Below, in pieces: positions 9,668 to 21,317 of a stretch of 56,292 nucleotides of DNA; position 1 is the first letter of the stretch, and each line of letters starts with the position of its first letter. The translations under genes and the position numbers were made by a program. The stretch covers positions 1-56,292 of IMG/VR virus record IMGVR_UViG_3300037847_000441; one strand, written 5' to 3'. The notes beneath the pieces are model-generated. The model was not told the origin of the DNA. It worked only from the letters and a program-made list of their open reading frames with translations, and ran no database searches. The DNA comes from a virus (taxonomy: Duplodnaviria; Caudoviricetes).

Positions 9668-9832
9668 TTATTTAAGTGTTCCTTTCTCCTCACCTTTCCA
9701 AGAATAATCATCCCATTTATTAAGTGCTGAACGAATATTACGTCCACCAGTTACGTCTTGAGCATATGCGTCACCAAAAGTTGTATCAGTTTCTTTTACA
9801 TTCTCAAGATATCCTTTACCTTTCTGCATCAT
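9668..9832 (-). CDS. 54-aa hypothetical protein (MMQKGKGYLENV...)
   Basis: Translated manually; GGAG RBS; overlaps the portal stop. Confidence 0.6.
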   Translation of the reverse strand: MMQKGKGYLENVKETDTTFGDAYAQDVTGGRNIRSALNKWDDYSWKGEEKGTLK

Positions 9833-12371
9833 TTCTCATCTCCGTTATTTGTTGATTCGCTACTTTTAACATATTTTCAATGGCTGTTTGATCTATTTCT
9901 TTTTGATCTTCCATTTGTTTCTTTAACATATCTGACATATATTTAGCTAATTCTTTTCTTTGATCAAGTTCTAGTTTACTTTCTTCTATTTGTATTTTAG
10001 CTTGTATCTCTGCTTCTTTAATAGCTTCTTTAGACTCACGATTAAGTTGAGCCTGTTCTTCTTTCATTTTACTTTGACCTGTAACTTTTAACATATCTAT
10101 AATTTGAGCAGTCTCTTTTATTTCAAGCTCTTTATTTTTGAGTTCTAACTCTGCTGCATCACTGGCCGTATCAGATTGTAGCTTTTGTTTTTCAAGTTCT
10201 ACTTTTGCTTGTTCAAGTGCTACAAGTTGTTGTTCTGGAGATTGAGCCATACCCATTGCTTGATTTGCACTAAGAACTTGTTGTGCAGCTTGAGCCATTA
10301 CCATTTCTATTACAGATGGATTCTGTGCTTGCTCTGGTGGAACTTGCTGCATTAATTGTTGTGTTACACCACTTACTTGCTCTTGATATTTCATAATAGA
10401 ATGTTCTTGAATATTAGCTTGTAAGATTGGAGCAATACGTTCCATTATTGGATTAGCACCATTTTGTGGATCTTGTAAATATGCCATCTTTGTTTGAATA
10501 TGTGCATCATGATTCTGACCCGGAAAAGCTGCAATAGGAACACCCTTAGTTGCTGCCATAATATCAGATACAGGATCAAGTTGTTGAGGCTCAATCTTTG
10601 GTGGAAGTATCTGATCTATATTAGGCATATTAGCTGCATTTAATATTGTACGATTAAGTGCTTCAAGATTAAACATCCCCGGTGGAGATTGTTGTGCCAT
10701 CTGTAATGCCATATTAGCCATCATCATGCGGTGAGCATTAGATGGAATATTAGGATCAGACACAGGAAGAATATCTATACGACCATCAAAGTCTCTCTTA
10801 AATATATTACGAGATTCGTATGGTACATCATATGGATATTGTGTAGGTAGATAATCAAAATCAATACGTGCTAATATTCTAAATTCATCTTTTTGTGCTT
10901 TGTGTAATCTTTTATGAACCGCACTAAAGAATTTACTTGATGCTTCTAATAGTGCCATAGTTGTACCAACGGGTCCATAGGAGGCAGCATCAGAGATAAC
11001 TTGCTCTGTGCTATCCGCAAACTTCTGACCAGCAGCAGTTACGAAATTTAACATCTGGAATAGAGTAGAGGAAGGCTCTTTGTAGGGGAGAGGAACAATA
11101 GCCTTTGATAAGTCTACACCAGTTGCTTCAACCTCCTTGAACTCGCCGGGTGATATAGGATCATTGTCACCAACCATCCTTACACCTTTGGCCTTAAACC
11201 CTCCCGGTAAATTAGCAAACTGACCTGCGTCTATGAGGGACCGCATTGCAGCAGTTGCTGACATCGTGAGATTGCCTAAGAAGTGTATAAGACCAAATCC
11301 ATAGAAACCAAAGCCGGGTACAAACCTATAGTGGACAAAATGATTTATCTTCTCTTTGTTTGCATCGTTTTCCTTATAGTTTCTACGAATACTTAGTACT
11401 TGTCGAGAATCTTTCTCAACAGTTATGATATAGGGAAGAAGTTCTCCTTCTTCTTCTATATCTAAATAGCAATGTTGCTCTAATAAAACATATTGTGGAT
11501 CATTATCTGAAGAGGGAGACAAACCAATAATAGTATCTATCTTTTCTCCAAAATCAGTTATGGCTCCCATAGAAGGTTCTGGTAGATCAACATCTTCATA
11601 AACACCAGCCCTAATGTCTCTTTGTATTTCTACAGGGCTACGATAAATTAAATGCGTATATCTATCTGCGTTACCAAGGTCAGTGGCATAGTAAGACACA
11701 TAGAACTGATCTATAGGTATAAACTCTGACTTAGGACGTTTAACTGTAGCATCGTAATACATCTTTTTAAATGCAGAACCAATCAAAGGAAGATGGAACA
11801 ACATTCTTTCAAACTCATCAAAATACTCTGGCATCTGCTCAGTAAGTTGATAGTTCATAAAGTTTTGAACACGATTAGCTTGTAGTTCTTTTTCTTGTGT
11901 AGCTTGTCCTATAATCTGTGTTTTAACAGGGCCGCTTGAAGGAAACAATTCATTAGAAGCTTTTGATTGAAATTTAACAGCAGACTCAATAAGTAATGGA
12001 TGAACTGCTGTACACGCACCTTCAAATGGTTCTGATCCATGTTCTAGTTTAAGACCAAGAAGATCAAAGCCTTTTTCAAACATAGACTCCCACTCTTGTC
12101 TAGAGTCTTTATCTGCTTCAAAATTTTCAATAACAGTATTAGCTATGTCAGCTAGATCTTCATCATCTAACTCTTCTACCATATTGCCAAACCATTCAGC
12201 AACAGAGCCTGTAGCTTCCATTTCTGTATTTTCAGTAAAGTCTACAATAACACCACCATCATCGTCTACTTCAAAAGTAGCGTTTAGATTATCTTCCATC
12301 ATAGCTTCAGGAGCTATTTTAATATTTTCTTCTTGAGGTATCTGCTCAAGTGGATTTTGTTCTACAGCCAT
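9816..12371 (-). CDS. Portal protein
   Basis: 851 aa; GACTAVHPLLIES, PGFGFYGFGLIH, LPYKEPS; long Gln-rich coiled-coil C-terminus as in podoviral portals. Confidence 0.85.
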   Translation of the reverse strand: MAVEQNPLEQIPQEENIKIAPEAMMEDNLNATFEVDDDGGVIVDFTENTEMEATGSVAEWFGNMVEELDDEDLADIANTVIENFEADKDSRQEWESMFEKGFDLLGLKLEHGSEPFEGACTAVHPLLIESAVKFQSKASNELFPSSGPVKTQIIGQATQEKELQANRVQNFMNYQLTEQMPEYFDEFERMLFHLPLIGSAFKKMYYDATVKRPKSEFIPIDQFYVSYYATDLGNADRYTHLIYRSPVEIQRDIRAGVYEDVDLPEPSMGAITDFGEKIDTIIGLSPSSDNDPQYVLLEQHCYLDIEEEGELLPYIITVEKDSRQVLSIRRNYKENDANKEKINHFVHYRFVPGFGFYGFGLIHFLGNLTMSATAAMRSLIDAGQFANLPGGFKAKGVRMVGDNDPISPGEFKEVEATGVDLSKAIVPLPYKEPSSTLFQMLNFVTAAGQKFADSTEQVISDAASYGPVGTTMALLEASSKFFSAVHKRLHKAQKDEFRILARIDFDYLPTQYPYDVPYESRNIFKRDFDGRIDILPVSDPNIPSNAHRMMMANMALQMAQQSPPGMFNLEALNRTILNAANMPNIDQILPPKIEPQQLDPVSDIMAATKGVPIAAFPGQNHDAHIQTKMAYLQDPQNGANPIMERIAPILQANIQEHSIMKYQEQVSGVTQQLMQQVPPEQAQNPSVIEMVMAQAAQQVLSANQAMGMAQSPEQQLVALEQAKVELEKQKLQSDTASDAAELELKNKELEIKETAQIIDMLKVTGQSKMKEEQAQLNRESKEAIKEAEIQAKIQIEESKLELDQRKELAKYMSDMLKKQMEDQKEIDQTAIENMLKVANQQITEMRNDAER

Positions 12372-14326: not shown

Positions 14327-15865
14327 TTATATATTCCAATAAGTTGCTCTTTTACTTCTTTCACCATCTTCATACTCAGGATCATCAGGATGTGTAAGAT
14401 GCCACGAGTCTTTCATATAATGCACAGCCATTGTCAAAGCATCTACCTGATCATCATGGGCCGCATTTGGAAAACGTATGAGTTCTTCTATTAGATCGTC
14501 TGCCCACTTTTTATTTGTAGGTATCCATACTCTACCTGATTCCATCATGGGTGTAGATGCGTATACCCTTGCAGTCTTGTCTCTATCAGGCATATATTCT
14601 AAAATAGGTAGACCAGCCCTACGCATATCTTGTATTAAAGACTGACCAGATGCTTTCTTTTCTATCATGCAGACATCAGGCTTATGTTGATTATATAATC
14701 TTTGTGCTAACTTTCTTAACTCTGGATATTCAAATCTACCTTTAATATTACCAAGAAGTATTAGGTGAGGAGCATAATCTTCATATCCTTGATCATCTTG
14801 ATTATACATATAGAAGATACCCCATGTTTGTATTACACTATAATCAGCAGTGCTTGATGTAGAGAACGCTGTATCATAAGTTTGTATTACAAAGTCACAG
14901 GTAGGTGGCTCATCATACTCCCAGTTTTGAAGCCATCGTTTTTTTATGAGGCCACCTTCTTCAGGTGTAGGGTCTTGCATGTAGAGAGCATTCCAATAAC
15001 GAGAACCATTAGAAGCTTTGATTTCATTCTCATCTACTTTTAGTACACTATCTGGTTTCCATTCTGGAAAATAACTAGATCCTACCGGAAGATCTAACAG
15101 ATCTGCTGCTTCTTCATCTAACCACGCTGGTATCTTTACAACTTCCCACGGTATCGTTTCATAGTCACCCATATTCTCTTGTTGTTTTAAGAGCCAGCCA
15201 CAAAGATCATCATAATGATATCTTGTATTTATTATAACAATAGAACCATTAGGCATAATACGTGTTCTAAGTCCAGCAGGATACCATTCTTTTATAAATC
15301 TTCTACCTGCACTAGAAATTGCATCTTCCTCTGACATAGCATCGTCTAAGATTGCTACATGTGCGCCTCGTCCAGCTATCTGTGAACGTACACCAGCAGC
15401 ATAATACGTACCATTTTGGTTTGTCTTCCACTTTCCTGCGGCTCTAACGTCACTTCGTAAAGACACACCACGAAATACTTTTTGAAACTCCTCTGTGTTT
15501 ACTATATCACGTACTGATCTGCCAAAGTCACTGGCTAGTTGGTCACTATGTGAGATAGTTAGGAGTTCATGCTCTGGGTTTCTACCTATATACCATGCGG
15601 GAAACAGTTTAGAGCAGACAACAGACTTAGAAGATCGTGGAGGCAGAAAGACCATGAGTCTTTTTATTTCTCCTGACTCTACTTGTTGTAGTTTTTCTGA
15701 GATAACTTCTATGTGTCGCCCCATTTTGAAGCCAGACACAAGACTAGGTGCTACTAATCTTACAAAAGACAAGAAGTCAGTGTTACATTGTTGATTAACT
15801 TGCTGAGACAACAGCCCTTCAAGCTGTATATAGGACTCTATATAGTTACTATTTAGTTGTTCCAT
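14327..15865 (-). CDS. terL: Terminase large subunit
   Basis: Walker A-like LPPRSSKS, Walker B AILDD, coupling motif NTRYH, nuclease motifs YDTA and HDDQVDA. Confidence 0.93.
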   Translation of the reverse strand: MEQLNSNYIESYIQLEGLLSQQVNQQCNTDFLSFVRLVAPSLVSGFKMGRHIEVISEKLQQVESGEIKRLMVFLPPRSSKSVVCSKLFPAWYIGRNPEHELLTISHSDQLASDFGRSVRDIVNTEEFQKVFRGVSLRSDVRAAGKWKTNQNGTYYAAGVRSQIAGRGAHVAILDDAMSEEDAISSAGRRFIKEWYPAGLRTRIMPNGSIVIINTRYHYDDLCGWLLKQQENMGDYETIPWEVVKIPAWLDEEAADLLDLPVGSSYFPEWKPDSVLKVDENEIKASNGSRYWNALYMQDPTPEEGGLIKKRWLQNWEYDEPPTCDFVIQTYDTAFSTSSTADYSVIQTWGIFYMYNQDDQGYEDYAPHLILLGNIKGRFEYPELRKLAQRLYNQHKPDVCMIEKKASGQSLIQDMRRAGLPILEYMPDRDKTARVYASTPMMESGRVWIPTNKKWADDLIEELIRFPNAAHDDQVDALTMAVHYMKDSWHLTHPDDPEYEDGERSKRATYWNI

Positions 15866-15953
15866 AGTAATATTTTATATTATTAATATTAAAATTATAA
15901 AAAAAATATATCTTAGTAGTTAATTAGCTACTAATTAGTTACTCTATAGGTAT

Positions 15954-15982
15954 ATTATACAGTATTATATAGCTATCCACAA
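15954..15982 (-). promoter_or_regulatory. Sigma70-like promoter for terL
   Basis: TTGTGG-N17-TATAAT. Confidence 0.55.
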
Positions 15983-16154
15983 TAGTAATATAAAAAAATA
16001 TCTAATTAATAACTAATTAGTACCGCACTGTGACATTTTTACAACACTTATAGATATCTTTTTTGATTATAGACCCTAGTATTTTGCTAAATATATGTGG
16101 GGGTCATATATATATAGCGTATGCAATGCATTTTTTTTGTGCAGGGTCTGCAAT

Positions 16155-16307
16155 GTTCTTGTTTTGTTCCTGTTTTGTTCCATAAAAGATACCTTTTGGC
16201 GAACAAATAGAGAACAAATGAGGAACTAGCTAGTATTTTCGTCCTCTAAGAGAACAGAATGGCAACATTATTGCCCAAACCCCCAGAAAATAGAACAAAA
16301 TGAGAAC
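16155..16307. promoter_or_regulatory. Cluster of alphaproteobacterial LexA (SOS) boxes
   Basis: GTTC at 16155/16166/16177; GAAC at 16201/16212/16223 and 16293/16304; all exactly N7 apart. Confidence 0.8.
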
Positions 16308-16351
16308 AACACCCCACCATGTAGGATGACACATTATAATATATAGGACGA

Positions 16352-16461
16352 TTGTAATATTATTTCAATGATGATACTAAAACCTTTACGAATATTACTC
16401 TGAGCCAGAAACTTGTAATATTATTTCAAGAATAGTATTAAAATCTTTTTAAATGTTACCC
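16352..16461. repeat. Two ~49-bp direct repeats at 61-bp spacing with identical core TTGTAATATTATTTCAA
   Basis: Copies start at 16352 and 16413. Confidence 0.85.
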
Positions 16462-16584
16462 AAATCGAACTAATTTTTTTCATTTATTGTTATTTGCACC
16501 ATTAGGCTTGATATCTGGAACTCTATGGATTAATTCTACAGTACCGGAAATAAGTTCTGGTAGTGTTGCAAAAATGTCACACTT

Positions 16585-16605
16585 TAATTTACACTGTAAA
16601 CCATA
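16585..16605. promoter_or_regulatory. Palindromic operator copy 1 (TTTACA-S-TGTAAA)
   Basis: Exact 21-bp reverse complement of 17521-17541. Confidence 0.8.
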
Positions 16606-16620
16606 GAGGGGATTGCAAAA

Positions 16621-17139
16621 ATGTTAGATCAAACCAATTACGAAACTCCTGTTGACGGTCTTACCGAAATAAATGAGATAGTCGCAGCAGGGTTCAAGGT
16701 AGACAGCACCGGAGAGGCAACCGCAGACATGAAAGCTTCATTCTGCGAGGCACTGCACTCTAAGTTCCGAGAGTTGCCAGGTAGCCCACAAGCAATAGCG
16801 GATGATATCGCAAGGGCAAATGATTTTAAACGCAAGGTTCCGGTATTGGCAGAGGGTCAATCGGTACTGAATAAAAACGGTAACCCTGTTATGGCCAAAA
16901 TAGGCACGGTAGAACCTCCTAAGTGTTATAGAACTGTAGTGTCAATCATGATCAAAGTGTATGACACTAACGGCCAGCTAGAGCAAAGCTTTACAGAGAC
17001 TAGGAAAGCTTATCGAGAGATTTTAGATAGTGAGAAAACCAAGGAGGGCGAGGCCAAAAAGATAGTCAAGAAACTTGGCAAAGATCCCGAATTGATGGTA
17101 ATGGTCCTTGATATTCTTAAAGAAGTGGTAAACGACTAA
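16621..17139 (+). CDS. First early gene, hypothetical
   Basis: 172 aa; GAGGGG RBS; visibly higher GC than the genome. Confidence 0.8.
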   Translation: MLDQTNYETPVDGLTEINEIVAAGFKVDSTGEATADMKASFCEALHSKFRELPGSPQAIADDIARANDFKRKVPVLAEGQSVLNKNGNPVMAKIGTVEPPKCYRTVVSIMIKVYDTNGQLEQSFTETRKAYREILDSEKTKEGEAKKIVKKLGKDPELMVMVLDILKEVVND

Positions 17140-17153
17140 TCAACCCACTCACT

Positions 17154-17218
17154 AGACCGGAAGTAACCTCACGGCTCGTTTCGTGGGGTACTTTCGCACG
17201 TCTGCATTTTACTTTTAT
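17154..17218 (+). terminator. Long bulged RNA hairpin with T-rich tail (terminator or processing site)
   Basis: CGGAAGTA-A-CCTCACGG pairs with TCGTGGGG-TACTTTCG, closed by AGAC/GTCT. Confidence 0.55.
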
Positions 17219-17220
17219 TC

Positions 17221-17241
17221 ATGGTTTACACTGTAAATCAT
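17221..17241. promoter_or_regulatory. Palindromic operator copy 2
   Basis: ATGGTTTACACTGTAAATCAT. Confidence 0.8.
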
Positions 17242-17255
17242 AACGAGGTTATCCG

Positions 17256-17519
17256 ATGAAATTACAGTTTCTTACAGATGGTCGTGTTACTTTTGACCAC
17301 TCCCTAATTGGTAGCGTCAAACGTCTACCTAGTGGCAAGTATCTCGTAACTGATATCAGAGATAATTATAATAACAGCTATCACTATGCTTGCGAGGGTG
17401 ATGCACTAGGCCACTTTTACGTGTTTACAAGTTGGAAACAATACACTAATACAGCACCAAAGCCTATCAGTAGGACAATATACAAGCGAATAAATTGTAA
17501 GATATGGGCCACTAATTAA
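17256..17519 (+). CDS. Early hypothetical protein
   Basis: GAGG RBS; 87 aa. Confidence 0.7.
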   Translation: MKLQFLTDGRVTFDHSLIGSVKRLPSGKYLVTDIRDNYNNSYHYACEGDALGHFYVFTSWKQYTNTAPKPISRTIYKRINCKIWATN

Positions 17520-17520
17520 C

Positions 17521-17541
17521 TATGGTTTACAGTGTAAATTA
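17521..17541. promoter_or_regulatory. Palindromic operator copy 3
   Basis: TATGGTTTACAGTGTAAATTA. Confidence 0.8.
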
Positions 17542-17553
17542 TAAACAGATTGG

Positions 17554-17805
17554 ATGAAACAAATGTTTAACTTGAATGAACAGCAAACCAAAGATATTTT
17601 GGATGGTATGCCACGGTGGAACTGGGGTTTTTATAAAACGTGGGATAAGGCGAAAAATAGAATTGAGGAAATGAGATACACAGAAAAAAGTTTTATGAGG
17701 AGCAATCCTAGAATTAAGAAATGTAAGTCGGGCTATACAATCTCTCTTATTGATTGGAGCAAGGCGTACAAAGAAGTTTCAATAAAGTCTGGAGGAAACA
17801 AATGA
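17554..17805 (+). CDS. Early hypothetical protein
   Basis: ORF track; tiles with neighbours. Confidence 0.65.
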   Translation: MKQMFNLNEQQTKDILDGMPRWNWGFYKTWDKAKNRIEEMRYTEKSFMRSNPRIKKCKSGYTISLIDWSKAYKEVSIKSGGNK

Positions 17806-17882
17806 TGAAAATAATGTGTGAAGGGGTAGCATTTGGTATATTAATAACAGTAATAATATTTATCGGAATGGTGATGGTGTAA
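17802..17882 (+). CDS. 26-aa hydrophobic single-TM peptide
   Basis: Manual: MMKIMCEGVAFGILITVIIFIGMVMV; GGAGG RBS. Confidence 0.6.
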   Translation: MMKIMCEGVAFGILITVIIFIGMVMV

Positions 17883-17883
17883 A

Positions 17884-18096
17884 ATGAAAATAGGATTATT
17901 ATTCATTAGTTTTATATTTCTAATAGCGACTATACCTGTTATAGATATAAACCCATTAGTAGGTACTATGAATTTAATGGTGTCTATTATAGCTTTTATA
18001 GGTTTTCTTTTTGCATTTATAGAAGATTATAAACTTGCAAAAGAATATCCAAACCTATGCGGAAATAGAAAATACTTATTCGGAAGGAGAAGATAA
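17884..18096 (+). CDS. Small 2-TM membrane protein
   Basis: Two hydrophobic segments and a basic tail. Confidence 0.65.
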   Translation: MKIGLLFISFIFLIATIPVIDINPLVGTMNLMVSIIAFIGFLFAFIEDYKLAKEYPNLCGNRKYLFGRRR

Positions 18097-18279
18097 ATGG
18101 ATATCAAAGATTGGAATAATATACAGTTTTGGGAAGAATTGCTTGCAGATCTGAATCTGGAGCAACTGATAGAAATTGATAAAGCTTTTAGTGATGCACT
18201 AAAAAAACAGCCCATTACTAAAATTGATCATAGTCAATACTGGTGTATTGTGAGTATGGGAGGTGATAGAAATGTATAA
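18097..18279 (+). CDS. Early hypothetical protein
   Basis: AAGGA RBS; tiling. Confidence 0.65.
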   Translation: MDIKDWNNIQFWEELLADLNLEQLIEIDKAFSDALKKQPITKIDHSQYWCIVSMGGDRNV

Positions 18280-18856
18280 AAGAGATCAATACGAAATACA
18301 GAGGGCGTGTGAAGCAGATCCCAAATATACAAAAGAGGCAATGTTATTTGTTCTTGATAGCATACAACAAAGATTTCATCTCTTACCTATAATAATTGAG
18401 AAAAGAAGATCACTAGGTATAGAGTCGCCTTATTTAAATAATAATACAAAAAGGCTTGGGTATGAGTTTATCTTGGCAAACTACAAACAACTACACAAAG
18501 ATATATTTGATCCTGATCTATCACTAGCAGAAAAAATATTATCAGTATCAAGTATACCCGGCATTGGTATTGTCAAGGCTGGCTTTGTATTACAGTTATG
18601 TATAGGCAAGGTGGGTTGTCTTGATACTCACAATCTGAGAATGTTTGGGTTTAGTGATAGCGCATTTAAGTTTTCTAAAACCACAACCAGAAACACTGCA
18701 CTCGCAAAAGCGAGATTGTATATAGAAACTTGTGAGAAGCTTGGTGGTAGTGAGTTTCTGTGGGATAATTGGTGCGAGTTTATTGCATCAAAATATCCAA
18801 AACACTTCACCAGTGCCGATCAAGTTAGCCAAATGCACGTCGATCTAATTGTGTAA
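18272..18856 (+). CDS. HhH-GPD DNA glycosylase-like protein
   Basis: SIPGIGIVKAGF helix-hairpin-helix followed by CLDTHNLR; GGAGGT RBS. Confidence 0.6.
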   Translation: MYKRDQYEIQRACEADPKYTKEAMLFVLDSIQQRFHLLPIIIEKRRSLGIESPYLNNNTKRLGYEFILANYKQLHKDIFDPDLSLAEKILSVSSIPGIGIVKAGFVLQLCIGKVGCLDTHNLRMFGFSDSAFKFSKTTTRNTALAKARLYIETCEKLGGSEFLWDNWCEFIASKYPKHFTSADQVSQMHVDLIV

Positions 18857-20990: not shown

Positions 20991-21317
20991 ATGCATAGAG
21001 GAAGAAACTATTCTGATGATTTAGTAGATAATGTTATTACTCTATTTGATGAGGGGTTAACATCTACACAAGTAGCTAAGATAATAAATAAAAGATTTAG
21101 ATCAGAAGCACTTGGTAGATTTACTAGATGTTCCGCACTTAGTATTAAATTTAGGAAAGGAAAATGTGAAAAAAGTAATCGTAATTATTATTACCCACCT
21201 AGAAGATCATATGGCTATACTAAATCATTAGCCTTGAATGAAATTCAAGATAGAAAAACTGAACAAGATGAGATAAACTTATCAAAAGATCGTTTACAAC
21301 TAGCATTGAGAGGATAA
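20991..21317 (+). CDS. GcrA-like helix-turn-helix protein (divergent)
   Basis: YSDDLVDNVITLFDEGLTSTQVAK...TRCSALSIKFR parallels the GcrA N-terminus WTDERV..L..GLSASQIA...TRNAVIGK.HR. Confidence 0.55.
   Translation: MHRGRNYSDDLVDNVITLFDEGLTSTQVAKIINKRFRSEALGRFTRCSALSIKFRKGKCEKSNRNYYYPPRRSYGYTKSLALNEIQDRKTEQDEINLSKDRLQLALRG

Follow-up and report, generated by a model that had tools for sequence, protein, structure and literature searches.

The stretch of DNA analyzed here (the window) is the whole of IMG/VR virus record IMGVR_UViG_3300037847_000441, a phage genome (Caudoviricetes) of 56,292 bp that is estimated to be 97% complete and has a GC content of about 35%. Its leftward packaging and structural arm and its rightward early and replication arm are separated by a gene-free, divergent control region of 755 bp (15866 to 16620), and within this region, at 16155 to 16307, lies a dense cluster of GTTC-N7-GTTC direct repeats. 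Judged by their letters, these words are indistinguishable from the SOS-regulon operators of marine Alphaproteobacteria, because they share a 16-mer with such operators, resemble the boxes before lexA, umuD, and recA, and have the same invariant tetramers. Binding of the array by LexA is likely on this evidence, and the phage probably reads or soaks up the LexA of its host. We favor, with slightly less than even confidence, the reading that the cluster is an operator array through which the host SOS repressor LexA gates early transcription. What appears to be new is a stacked array of LexA-type operators in a phage in which no lysogeny genes were found, and its polymorphism among near-identical genomes.

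Composition of the array and its match to SOS operators

The initial annotation had listed repeated words at 16155-16180, 16201-16226, 16252-16266, and 16293-16307, and all of them could be read directly and recovered by pattern matching. The first group, assigned to the minus strand, consists of three GTTC half-sites in 11-bp phase that form two overlapping LexA-type boxes (16155-16180; minus-strand reading GGAACAAAACAGGAACAAAACAAGAACA). Three GAAC half-sites in the same phase on the plus strand (16201-16226) likewise form two overlapping boxes and mirror the first group, from which a 20-bp centre separates them; the arms 16155-16188 and 16193-16226 make up an inverted repeat that is 71% complementary. 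Farther along the plus strand follow a half-degenerate box, GAAC-N7-CAAC (GAACAGAATGGCAAC, 16252-16266), and a single perfect box, GAAC-N7-GAAC (GAACAAAATGAGAAC, 16293-16307), the latter an exact match to the pattern. Altogether, the array holds eight perfect half-sites in three groups (3+3+2) and one half-degenerate pair. Because the five pattern matches overlap, the sequence would allow at most three to four LexA dimers to sit on the array at the same time, and not five. The "five perfect boxes" described earlier therefore stand as five exact matches, whereas they do not stand as five separate binding sites.

The clustering was borne out by a count over the whole window, which gave five exact matches to GTTC-N7-GTTC against an expectation of 1.0, every one of them inside 16155-16307. 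Five or more matches anywhere in the sequence were reached in 1 of 100 shuffles of the window. When the 755-bp gap was shuffled 20,000 times with dinucleotides preserved, no shuffle reached five matches and the maximum was two. The 153-bp array contains nine GTTC/GAAC tetramers, against 1.05 expected from their density in the window.

Contigs from two other DNA runs, belonging to two studies, cover the left part of the array. One of them, from run X3 (possibly the source sample itself), spans 588 nt over 15669-16256 with one difference; the other, from run X5, spans 500 nt over 15729-16228 with two differences from the window. Run X5 also contains a population variant in which 33 other letters replace 16170-16561, joining 16169 to 16562, so that a short leader with one LexA-type box is followed by the same first early gene. 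All runs that hold window sequence are marine metagenomes.

The GTTC-N7-GTTC direct repeat is the SOS (LexA) box of Caulobacter crescentus, according to the available portions of two papers (PMC9578287, PMC12700426), and the phage words agree with alphaproteobacterial operators in core, spacing, and flanking preference, with R before the box and A after it. We scanned one genome per species for the 16-mer GAACAAAACAAGAACA, the minus-strand reading of the first box, and found exact copies in at least 120 genome stretches. Among the 80 genomes listed, 68 are alphaproteobacterial, many of them with a high GC content, and 13 are Pelagibacter or Pelagibacteraceae, the taxa being taken from record titles. 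The open reading frames (ORFs) adjoining the 16-mer were clustered by blastp, and one representative of each cluster was annotated with NCBIfam. The word stands before umuD at 13 loci, 12 of them from Pelagibacter or Pelagibacteraceae, where it lies 0-3 bp ahead of the start or overlaps it; one array box is thus letter-for-letter identical to the umuD operator of Pelagibacteraceae. It also precedes a PA0069-family radical-SAM gene (13 loci), an ImuA-like gene (eight loci), Y-family polymerases (three loci), and a ligase-associated damage-response helicase (one locus).

A similar picture was obtained from the SAR11 genomes themselves. In two complete ones, a box lies 28 bp before lexA, another abuts the umuD ATG, and recA is preceded by a box with one mismatch, which the array box at 16293-16307 equals in its first 10 letters. 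The lexA gene was present in 35 of 41 Pelagibacteraceae genomes sampled, and all 30 Pelagibacteraceae lexA loci fetched have one GAAC-N7-GAAC at a fixed distance of about 25 bp upstream, in which the tetramers are invariant and the spacers vary. In Pelagibacter ubique, lexA, recA, and mucA are co-expressed, as stated in an excerpt of PMC2864753. Over the complete SAR11 genomes G001 and G002 (1.3-1.4 Mb), GAAC-N7-GAAC occurs 15 and 16 times, against 34 and 41 times for the reversed control. This halved frequency might mean that streamlined genomes avoid LexA sites in stray positions, and words so rare in SAR11 make five of them in 153 bp of phage DNA more striking. The earlier assignment of the repeats to the alphaproteobacterial type of LexA operator is thus supported by the published Caulobacter motif as well as by matches before SOS genes, including those of Pelagibacteraceae.

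The nearest cultured relatives of the phage are pelagiphages and roseophages, with 40% identity in TerL and 46% in DNA polymerase, and its host is probably a marine alphaproteobacterium and possibly a member of SAR11. The initial annotation had taken the array as a pointer to the host class, which fits the hosts of these relatives, whereas their low identity weakens the fit. Its view that the phage has no visible lysogeny module agrees with our search, in which the 97%-complete record yielded no tyrosine integrase, serine recombinase, HTH_3 protein, or LexA/S24-type protein. Separately, a 108-aa early protein (20991-21317) matches the GcrA family of cell-cycle regulators weakly and below threshold (E 0.009), which, if real, would be compatible with an alphaproteobacterial host and a further pointer to it.

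Arrays in sister phages and in uncultured phages

TerL relatives of the phage in IMG/VR number 319, of which the best 80 were fetched. We surveyed the spacing between half-sites in 47 of these relatives and in the window, all of which extend 600 bp or more upstream of TerL. The N7 spacing gave 25 matches in 13 loci, against no more than five for each other spacing from N2 to N13, and outside the upstream regions there were four N7 matches in 487,885 bases. The box consensus among the TerL relatives is R-GAAC-AAAAC-R-R-GAAC-A.

Among the closest relatives, the array is present in some genomes and absent from others. The sister phage G003 (100% complete, 56,268 bp), which is 99% identical to the window in TerL and 98% in the primase-helicase, has no array and a single scattered word. 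G006 has no array either, and G004 and G007 have one box each in the control region. A homologous array is found in G005 (TerL 95%, primase-helicase 93% identical), which retains every tetramer of the group at 16201-16226, has the identical GAAC..CAAC state in the half-degenerate box, and reads CAAC in the second half-site of the box at 16293-16307. When the window and G005 were aligned, half-site columns differed at 1 of 40 positions and the other columns at 22 of 113 (Fisher p 0.009; one phage pair), which argues that the half-sites are under selection while the spacers drift. Since G003 does without it, the array is not required in cis by this replication and packaging machinery. On this comparison of genomes, it is an optional, selectable accessory module located where the variable early region begins.

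The homology between the window and its relatives extends from TerL to 16116 and then ends, at the last position of a conserved promoter-like block on the plus strand (16084-16116) that consists of TTGCTA and, after a further 17 nt, a (TA)n run (16107-16116). This block heads differing downstream modules in 20 relatives and the window, and its letters make it a putative rightward early promoter. Single boxes lie 16-62 nt after the same (TA)n block in the sub-lineages L034/L037, L043, L048/L049, L083/L085, and L047. In the window, the array starts about 35 nt downstream of the block. The array had been described as lying over 280 bp from either first gene; the distances are indeed 290 bp and 314 bp, but they do not place it far from a promoter, given its closeness to the promoter-like block.

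To look beyond this lineage, we searched IMG/VR for three phased half-sites with the AAAAC spacer, with the pattern read backwards as a control. At least 119 stretches matched, against 18 for the control, an excess of at least 6.6-fold. Among the 80 arrays listed, 43 have at least five boxes within 400 bp, with up to 15 in L267, and 25 of these 43 have all boxes in a single orientation. Across the array-bearing contigs, the number of boxes varies from 2 to 15 and the GC content from 30 to 60%, and the runs mostly consist of 2-4 half-sites with irregular gaps. We examined 3.5 kb on each side of these 80 arrays. The commonest neighbors are four TerL families and two TerS families, the largest neighbor family being a TerL found at 14 of the 80 loci, and at least 31 of the 80 have a terminase gene within that distance. 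The three genes adjacent to the array in the window had no homologue in any array-bearing locus. Arrays tend to head packaging or early operons in many unrelated phages, and the lack of a universal neighbor gene among such phages argues that the binder is a conserved protein of the host. The number of array-bearing contigs in IMG/VR suggests a general strategy rather than an oddity, and the array can serve as a host-class marker for uncultured phages.

Possible roles of the array

We tentatively regard the gating of phage transcription as the main role of the array, an assignment drawn from letters and positions that we hold at just under even odds. On an incoming genome, LexA dimers would fill up to three to four phased GTTC pairs, and bound LexA would block or damp transcription into the early module. 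Cleavage of LexA after activation of RecA, whether by ultraviolet (UV) light, oxidative damage, or phage replication intermediates, would lift the repression; alternatively, relief would come when the multiplying phage genomes outnumber the repressor. The boxes, at about +35 to +190 of the leader, would act as a multi-site roadblock. As the number of boxes at this position ranges from zero through one to many among near-identical phages, the array would be an optional sensor, and the single boxes found 16-62 nt after the same block support a transcriptional role. No phage-encoded binder is evident, as no neighbor family occurs at more than 14 of the 80 array-bearing loci.

Several observations weigh against gating. 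As the boxes do not lie over a -35/-10 pair, the proposed mechanism depends on roadblock repression. The block at 16084-16116 was not listed by a consensus promoter scan, because its second hexamer has no T at the sixth position; the region yielded two promoter-like sites in the same scan, fewer than the 5.0 that shuffles gave on average. Consensus scans gave no consistent geometry either in this region or in other array-bearing lineages. A perfect TTGACA-N17-TATAAT directed away from the array is present at 10 loci, 70-174 bp beyond it, while other loci have a promoter-like site pointing into the array, and such heterogeneous promoter geometry fits a decoy better than a classical operator. 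Overlapping runs of three half-sites and arrays with as many as 15 boxes are more than a gate would require. The cultured relatives HTVC027P, HTVC023P, HTVC104P, HTVC115P, CRP-901, and CRP-810 have no array, and their scattered words are at the control level. Infection by the pelagiphage HTVC027P induces host recA, lexA, umuDC, and uvr genes, as reported in the consulted part of PMC12753301; the published induction hence needs no array and is not to be credited to one. The loci L230, L245, and L267 have the same composite layout as the window, with a quasi-palindrome, G/C tracts, and mirrored GTTC/GAAC arms (and, in L267, a (TA)n centre), and the conservation of G/C tracts and a quasi-palindrome beside arrays suggests that more than one factor may act there and that another protein may be involved. 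Finally, with the nearest cultured phages only 40-46% identical in TerL and DNA polymerase, the assignment of the host stays indirect.

The strongest competitor, which we nonetheless consider rather unlikely, is a LexA decoy or "sponge", in which the boxes would bind LexA chiefly to titrate it and thereby turn on the host SOS regulon (recA, umuDC, excision repair). As the phage genome is copied, its operators would add tens to hundreds of sites and outnumber the handful of host operators. A possible benefit would be that sunlight-damaged phage DNA is repaired, in a reactivation of the Weigle type that the phage itself induces. A complete SAR11 genome has only 15-16 such words, so the 8-10 half-sites of a phage would quickly come to predominate as it replicates. 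The decoy would also explain why the number of boxes, their orientation, and their distance to promoter-like sites vary so widely, and the single orientation of 25 of the 43 larger arrays is as expected if only the number of sites counts. Moreover, the boxes tend to co-occur with a gene for a HhH-GPD glycosylase-like protein, and host SOS genes rise during pelagiphage infection, according to the same portion of PMC12753301. That rise took place with an array-free phage, however, which counts against the decoy as well. The lineage commonly has just one box, at a constant position behind the promoter-like block, and one site would be a poor sponge; in addition, the arrays occupy control regions by terminase or early genes and not arbitrary gaps.

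Iteron origins, such as phage P4 ori/crr, lambda ori, and those of iteron plasmids, combine short, helically phased repeats with an AT-rich run in a gene-free region. The phased TGTTC words might accordingly be iterons of a phage origin-binding or packaging protein, a TerS pac site, or sites for an OmpR/PhoB-type host regulator with 11-bp tandem sites, their likeness to LexA boxes being coincidental. We judge this improbable. The words are repeated and helically phased, adjoin the (TA)n run at 16107-16116, and lie at the minimum of the cumulative GC skew, which falls in 15866-16620; the skew minimum says little, because it coincides with the gene-strand switch. The proximity of a terminase gene to at least 31 of 80 arrays and the quasi-palindrome and G/C tracts that accompany arrays in several lineages also fit another protein. 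An origin or pac site is nevertheless unlikely for this phage, as the near-identical G003 lacks the array, and so does G006, whereas an element required in cis would be expected in every phage that shares the machinery. Unlike at iteron origins, no initiator gene co-varies with the repeats; more generally, no candidate binder gene within 3.5 kb to the left or right of the arrays does so universally. The word is found near genes of four TerL and two TerS families, in contigs with 30-60% GC, its runs, mostly of 2-4 half-sites with irregular gaps, form no uniform lattice, and it is exactly the operator of SOS genes in Alphaproteobacteria.

Two further explanations carry little weight. It is very unlikely that the mirrored GUUC/GAAC arms serve as a structured RNA by forming a long hairpin, be it in the early leader or a leftward transcript. 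The arms are 71% complementary, and the fold of 16120-16330 has z-scores of -2.5 (plus strand) and -3.1 (minus strand), yet these scores are modest and would arise with any inverted repeat, conservation concerns the tetramers and not compensating pairs, the 25 single-orientation arrays cannot form such a hairpin, and an Rfam search gave no family match, its three hits all being far below the gathering scores. Neutral repeat expansion or chance, for which one could cite the AT-rich gap with its several other repeats, is next to negligible, as no shuffle came close, the spacing is specific to N7, the excess in IMG/VR is at least 6.6-fold, and half-sites are kept while spacers drift.

Gating by LexA also has partial counterparts among known systems. 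A CtrA-site array (TTAA-N7-TTAA) occupies the divergent gap of the Brevundimonas phage vB_BsubS-Delta, and similar arrays occur in other phages of Alphaproteobacteria, where "lytic deferment" has been proposed; Spo0A sites in the Bacillus phage phi29 are cited in the same paper (PMC9437464, consulted in part). As in those CtrA arrays, so far as the excerpt describes them, the window shows a virulent-type phage with dense sites of the type of a host global regulator, N7 geometry, and a position between divergent operons, in a genome in which no lysogeny genes were found. The differences are that the regulator would here be the SOS repressor instead of a master regulator of the cell cycle or sporulation, so that the signal would be DNA damage or replication stress, and that the LexA-type array is present or absent among near-identical genomes. 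Temperate elements such as GIL01, CTX phi, and those with coliphage 186-type antirepressor control use LexA, according to the introduction of PMC9437464; in them, host LexA sites in the phage DNA couple phage gene expression to the SOS signal, as the LexA-type sites of the window would. As far as that introduction covers them, however, they are lysogens with one to few sites at the switch promoter, in contrast to an array in a phage in which no lysogeny genes were found. Host SOS operators, for their part, are single or double and stand at their own promoter, whereas the phage has eight perfect and two further half-sites in 153 bp, at a distance of about 300 bp from the gene on either side. 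In the literature searched, which did not extend to subscription journals, there was no report of LexA-box arrays in pelagiphages or other phages of Alphaproteobacteria.

If LexA binds, the array would give a virulent phage a protein-free way to sense or manipulate the DNA-damage state of its host, which is perhaps among the most abundant marine bacteria. It would then bear on pseudolysogeny, on the daily timing of lysis in sunlit water, and on the survival of UV-damaged phage genomes, and the window and G005 with the array and G003 without it offer a natural presence/absence comparison. A wider proposal, possible though on balance doubtful, is that many uncultured phages of Alphaproteobacteria, the present one among them, have a portable cassette of LexA operators instead of a repressor gene. 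Such a cassette would provide a purely lytic phage with either a damage- or sunlight-gated start, that is, dormancy without lysogeny, or a means of turning on host SOS repair by titrating LexA, which, along with a co-travelling Ogg-like glycosylase, would repair the UV-damaged phage DNA. Natural populations would maintain the gated and ungated genomes, otherwise 98-99% identical, as alternative life histories.

Genes and further elements around the array

To the left of the control region, the packaging and structural operon begins with TerL (14327-15865, minus strand; phrog_38, E 6e-107), and the portal gene of this leftward arm lies at 9816-12371. To the right, the early arm opens with an ORF call of 172 aa (16621-17139, plus strand) that belongs to no known family and for which no relatives were found, including in a search of IMG/VR proteins. 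Further small ORFs are followed by the primase-helicase, a family-A DNA polymerase, a ribonucleotide reductase, and a Cas4-type exonuclease. No match to the DNA of 15000-18000 was found among cultured phages, and a short blastn search of these phages with a 37-nt piece of the array gave only matches at the level of chance. Contigs assembled from RNA libraries of one sample (X19 and X20) cover only 16543/16544-16706, at 99-100% identity. Being assembled contigs, they give no start, strand, or level, and nothing follows from the array being uncovered; their cover over the first early ORF is a weak hint of transcription, with a putative start near 16543.

The glycosylase-like early gene (18263-18856, plus strand) encodes a protein of 197 aa with no sequence match in Pfam, PHROG, or the Protein Data Bank (PDB). 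Its predicted structure, modeled with a predicted local distance difference test score (pLDDT) of 93, weakly resembles Ogg2/EndoIII-type and other HhH-GPD glycosylases (template-modeling score about 0.5, best E 0.05), and Lys105 and Asp121 in the helix-hairpin-helix region are invariant in six homologues. Boxes are present in four of five loci with this gene and in 3 of 19 without it (p 0.014; 24 relatives). The table of 24 loci was built by hand, and because related loci (L083/L085, L078/L080) were treated as independent, the co-occurrence is only a lead; together with the modeled fold, the gene travelling with the boxes hints at a DNA-damage theme.

A small hairpin, TGCAGGGTCTGCA (16140-16152, plus strand), came out of the scan for terminator-like sequences; it follows a T-run, immediately precedes the first box, and is conserved in G005. 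Between the array and the first early gene, two 47-nt direct repeats (16352-16398 and 16413-16459) are 79% identical, lie 61 nt apart, and each start with TTGTAA; they may be tandem promoters or protein sites.

A quasi-palindrome of 20-24 nt (GTGTTGCAAAAATGTCACA and its inverse) brackets the control region, with one copy toward each operon. The left 20-nt copy (16029-16048), which is conserved in relatives without an array, is 95% complementary to its inverted partner at 16562-16581, and the latter stands 40 nt ahead of the first early ORF. The element recurs, sometimes in tandem, beside arrays with other terminases (L230:600-690, L245:980-1090, L267:5460-5480), and GTGTGACA is about 17-fold enriched near arrays, with 27 occurrences where 1.6 would be expected. 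The element may serve as operator for a second regulator, perhaps one encoded by the phage. Short G or C tracts also stand beside the boxes (16100-16104, 16283-16287, and 16313-16316 in the window), and GGGGGGT, GACCCCCC, and similar words are 20-50-fold enriched within 300 bp of arrays, in 12-19 of the 80 IMG/VR contigs.

Other repeats occur in the corresponding regions of the relatives. In L078 and L080, five or six copies of a 21-23-bp palindrome of the TTGCGAATGATTCTCATTTGCAA type lie 200-450 bp upstream of TerL; they share the gap with three or four LexA-type boxes and resemble a Fur-family box. The 13-nt core of this palindrome gave 12 matches in 13 Pelagibacteraceae genomes, against 10 for the reversed control. 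The array-free relatives L006, L013, L015, L056, and others have strong hairpins with 12-bp stems (ctgtagtagtaac...gttactacag) 300-900 bp upstream of TerL, flanked by TAATTAG words and located before and between small early genes. In the window, copies of CTAATTAG are crowded in 15905-16022, and these copies, like the hairpins of the array-free relatives, may be phage-specific terminators or promoters.

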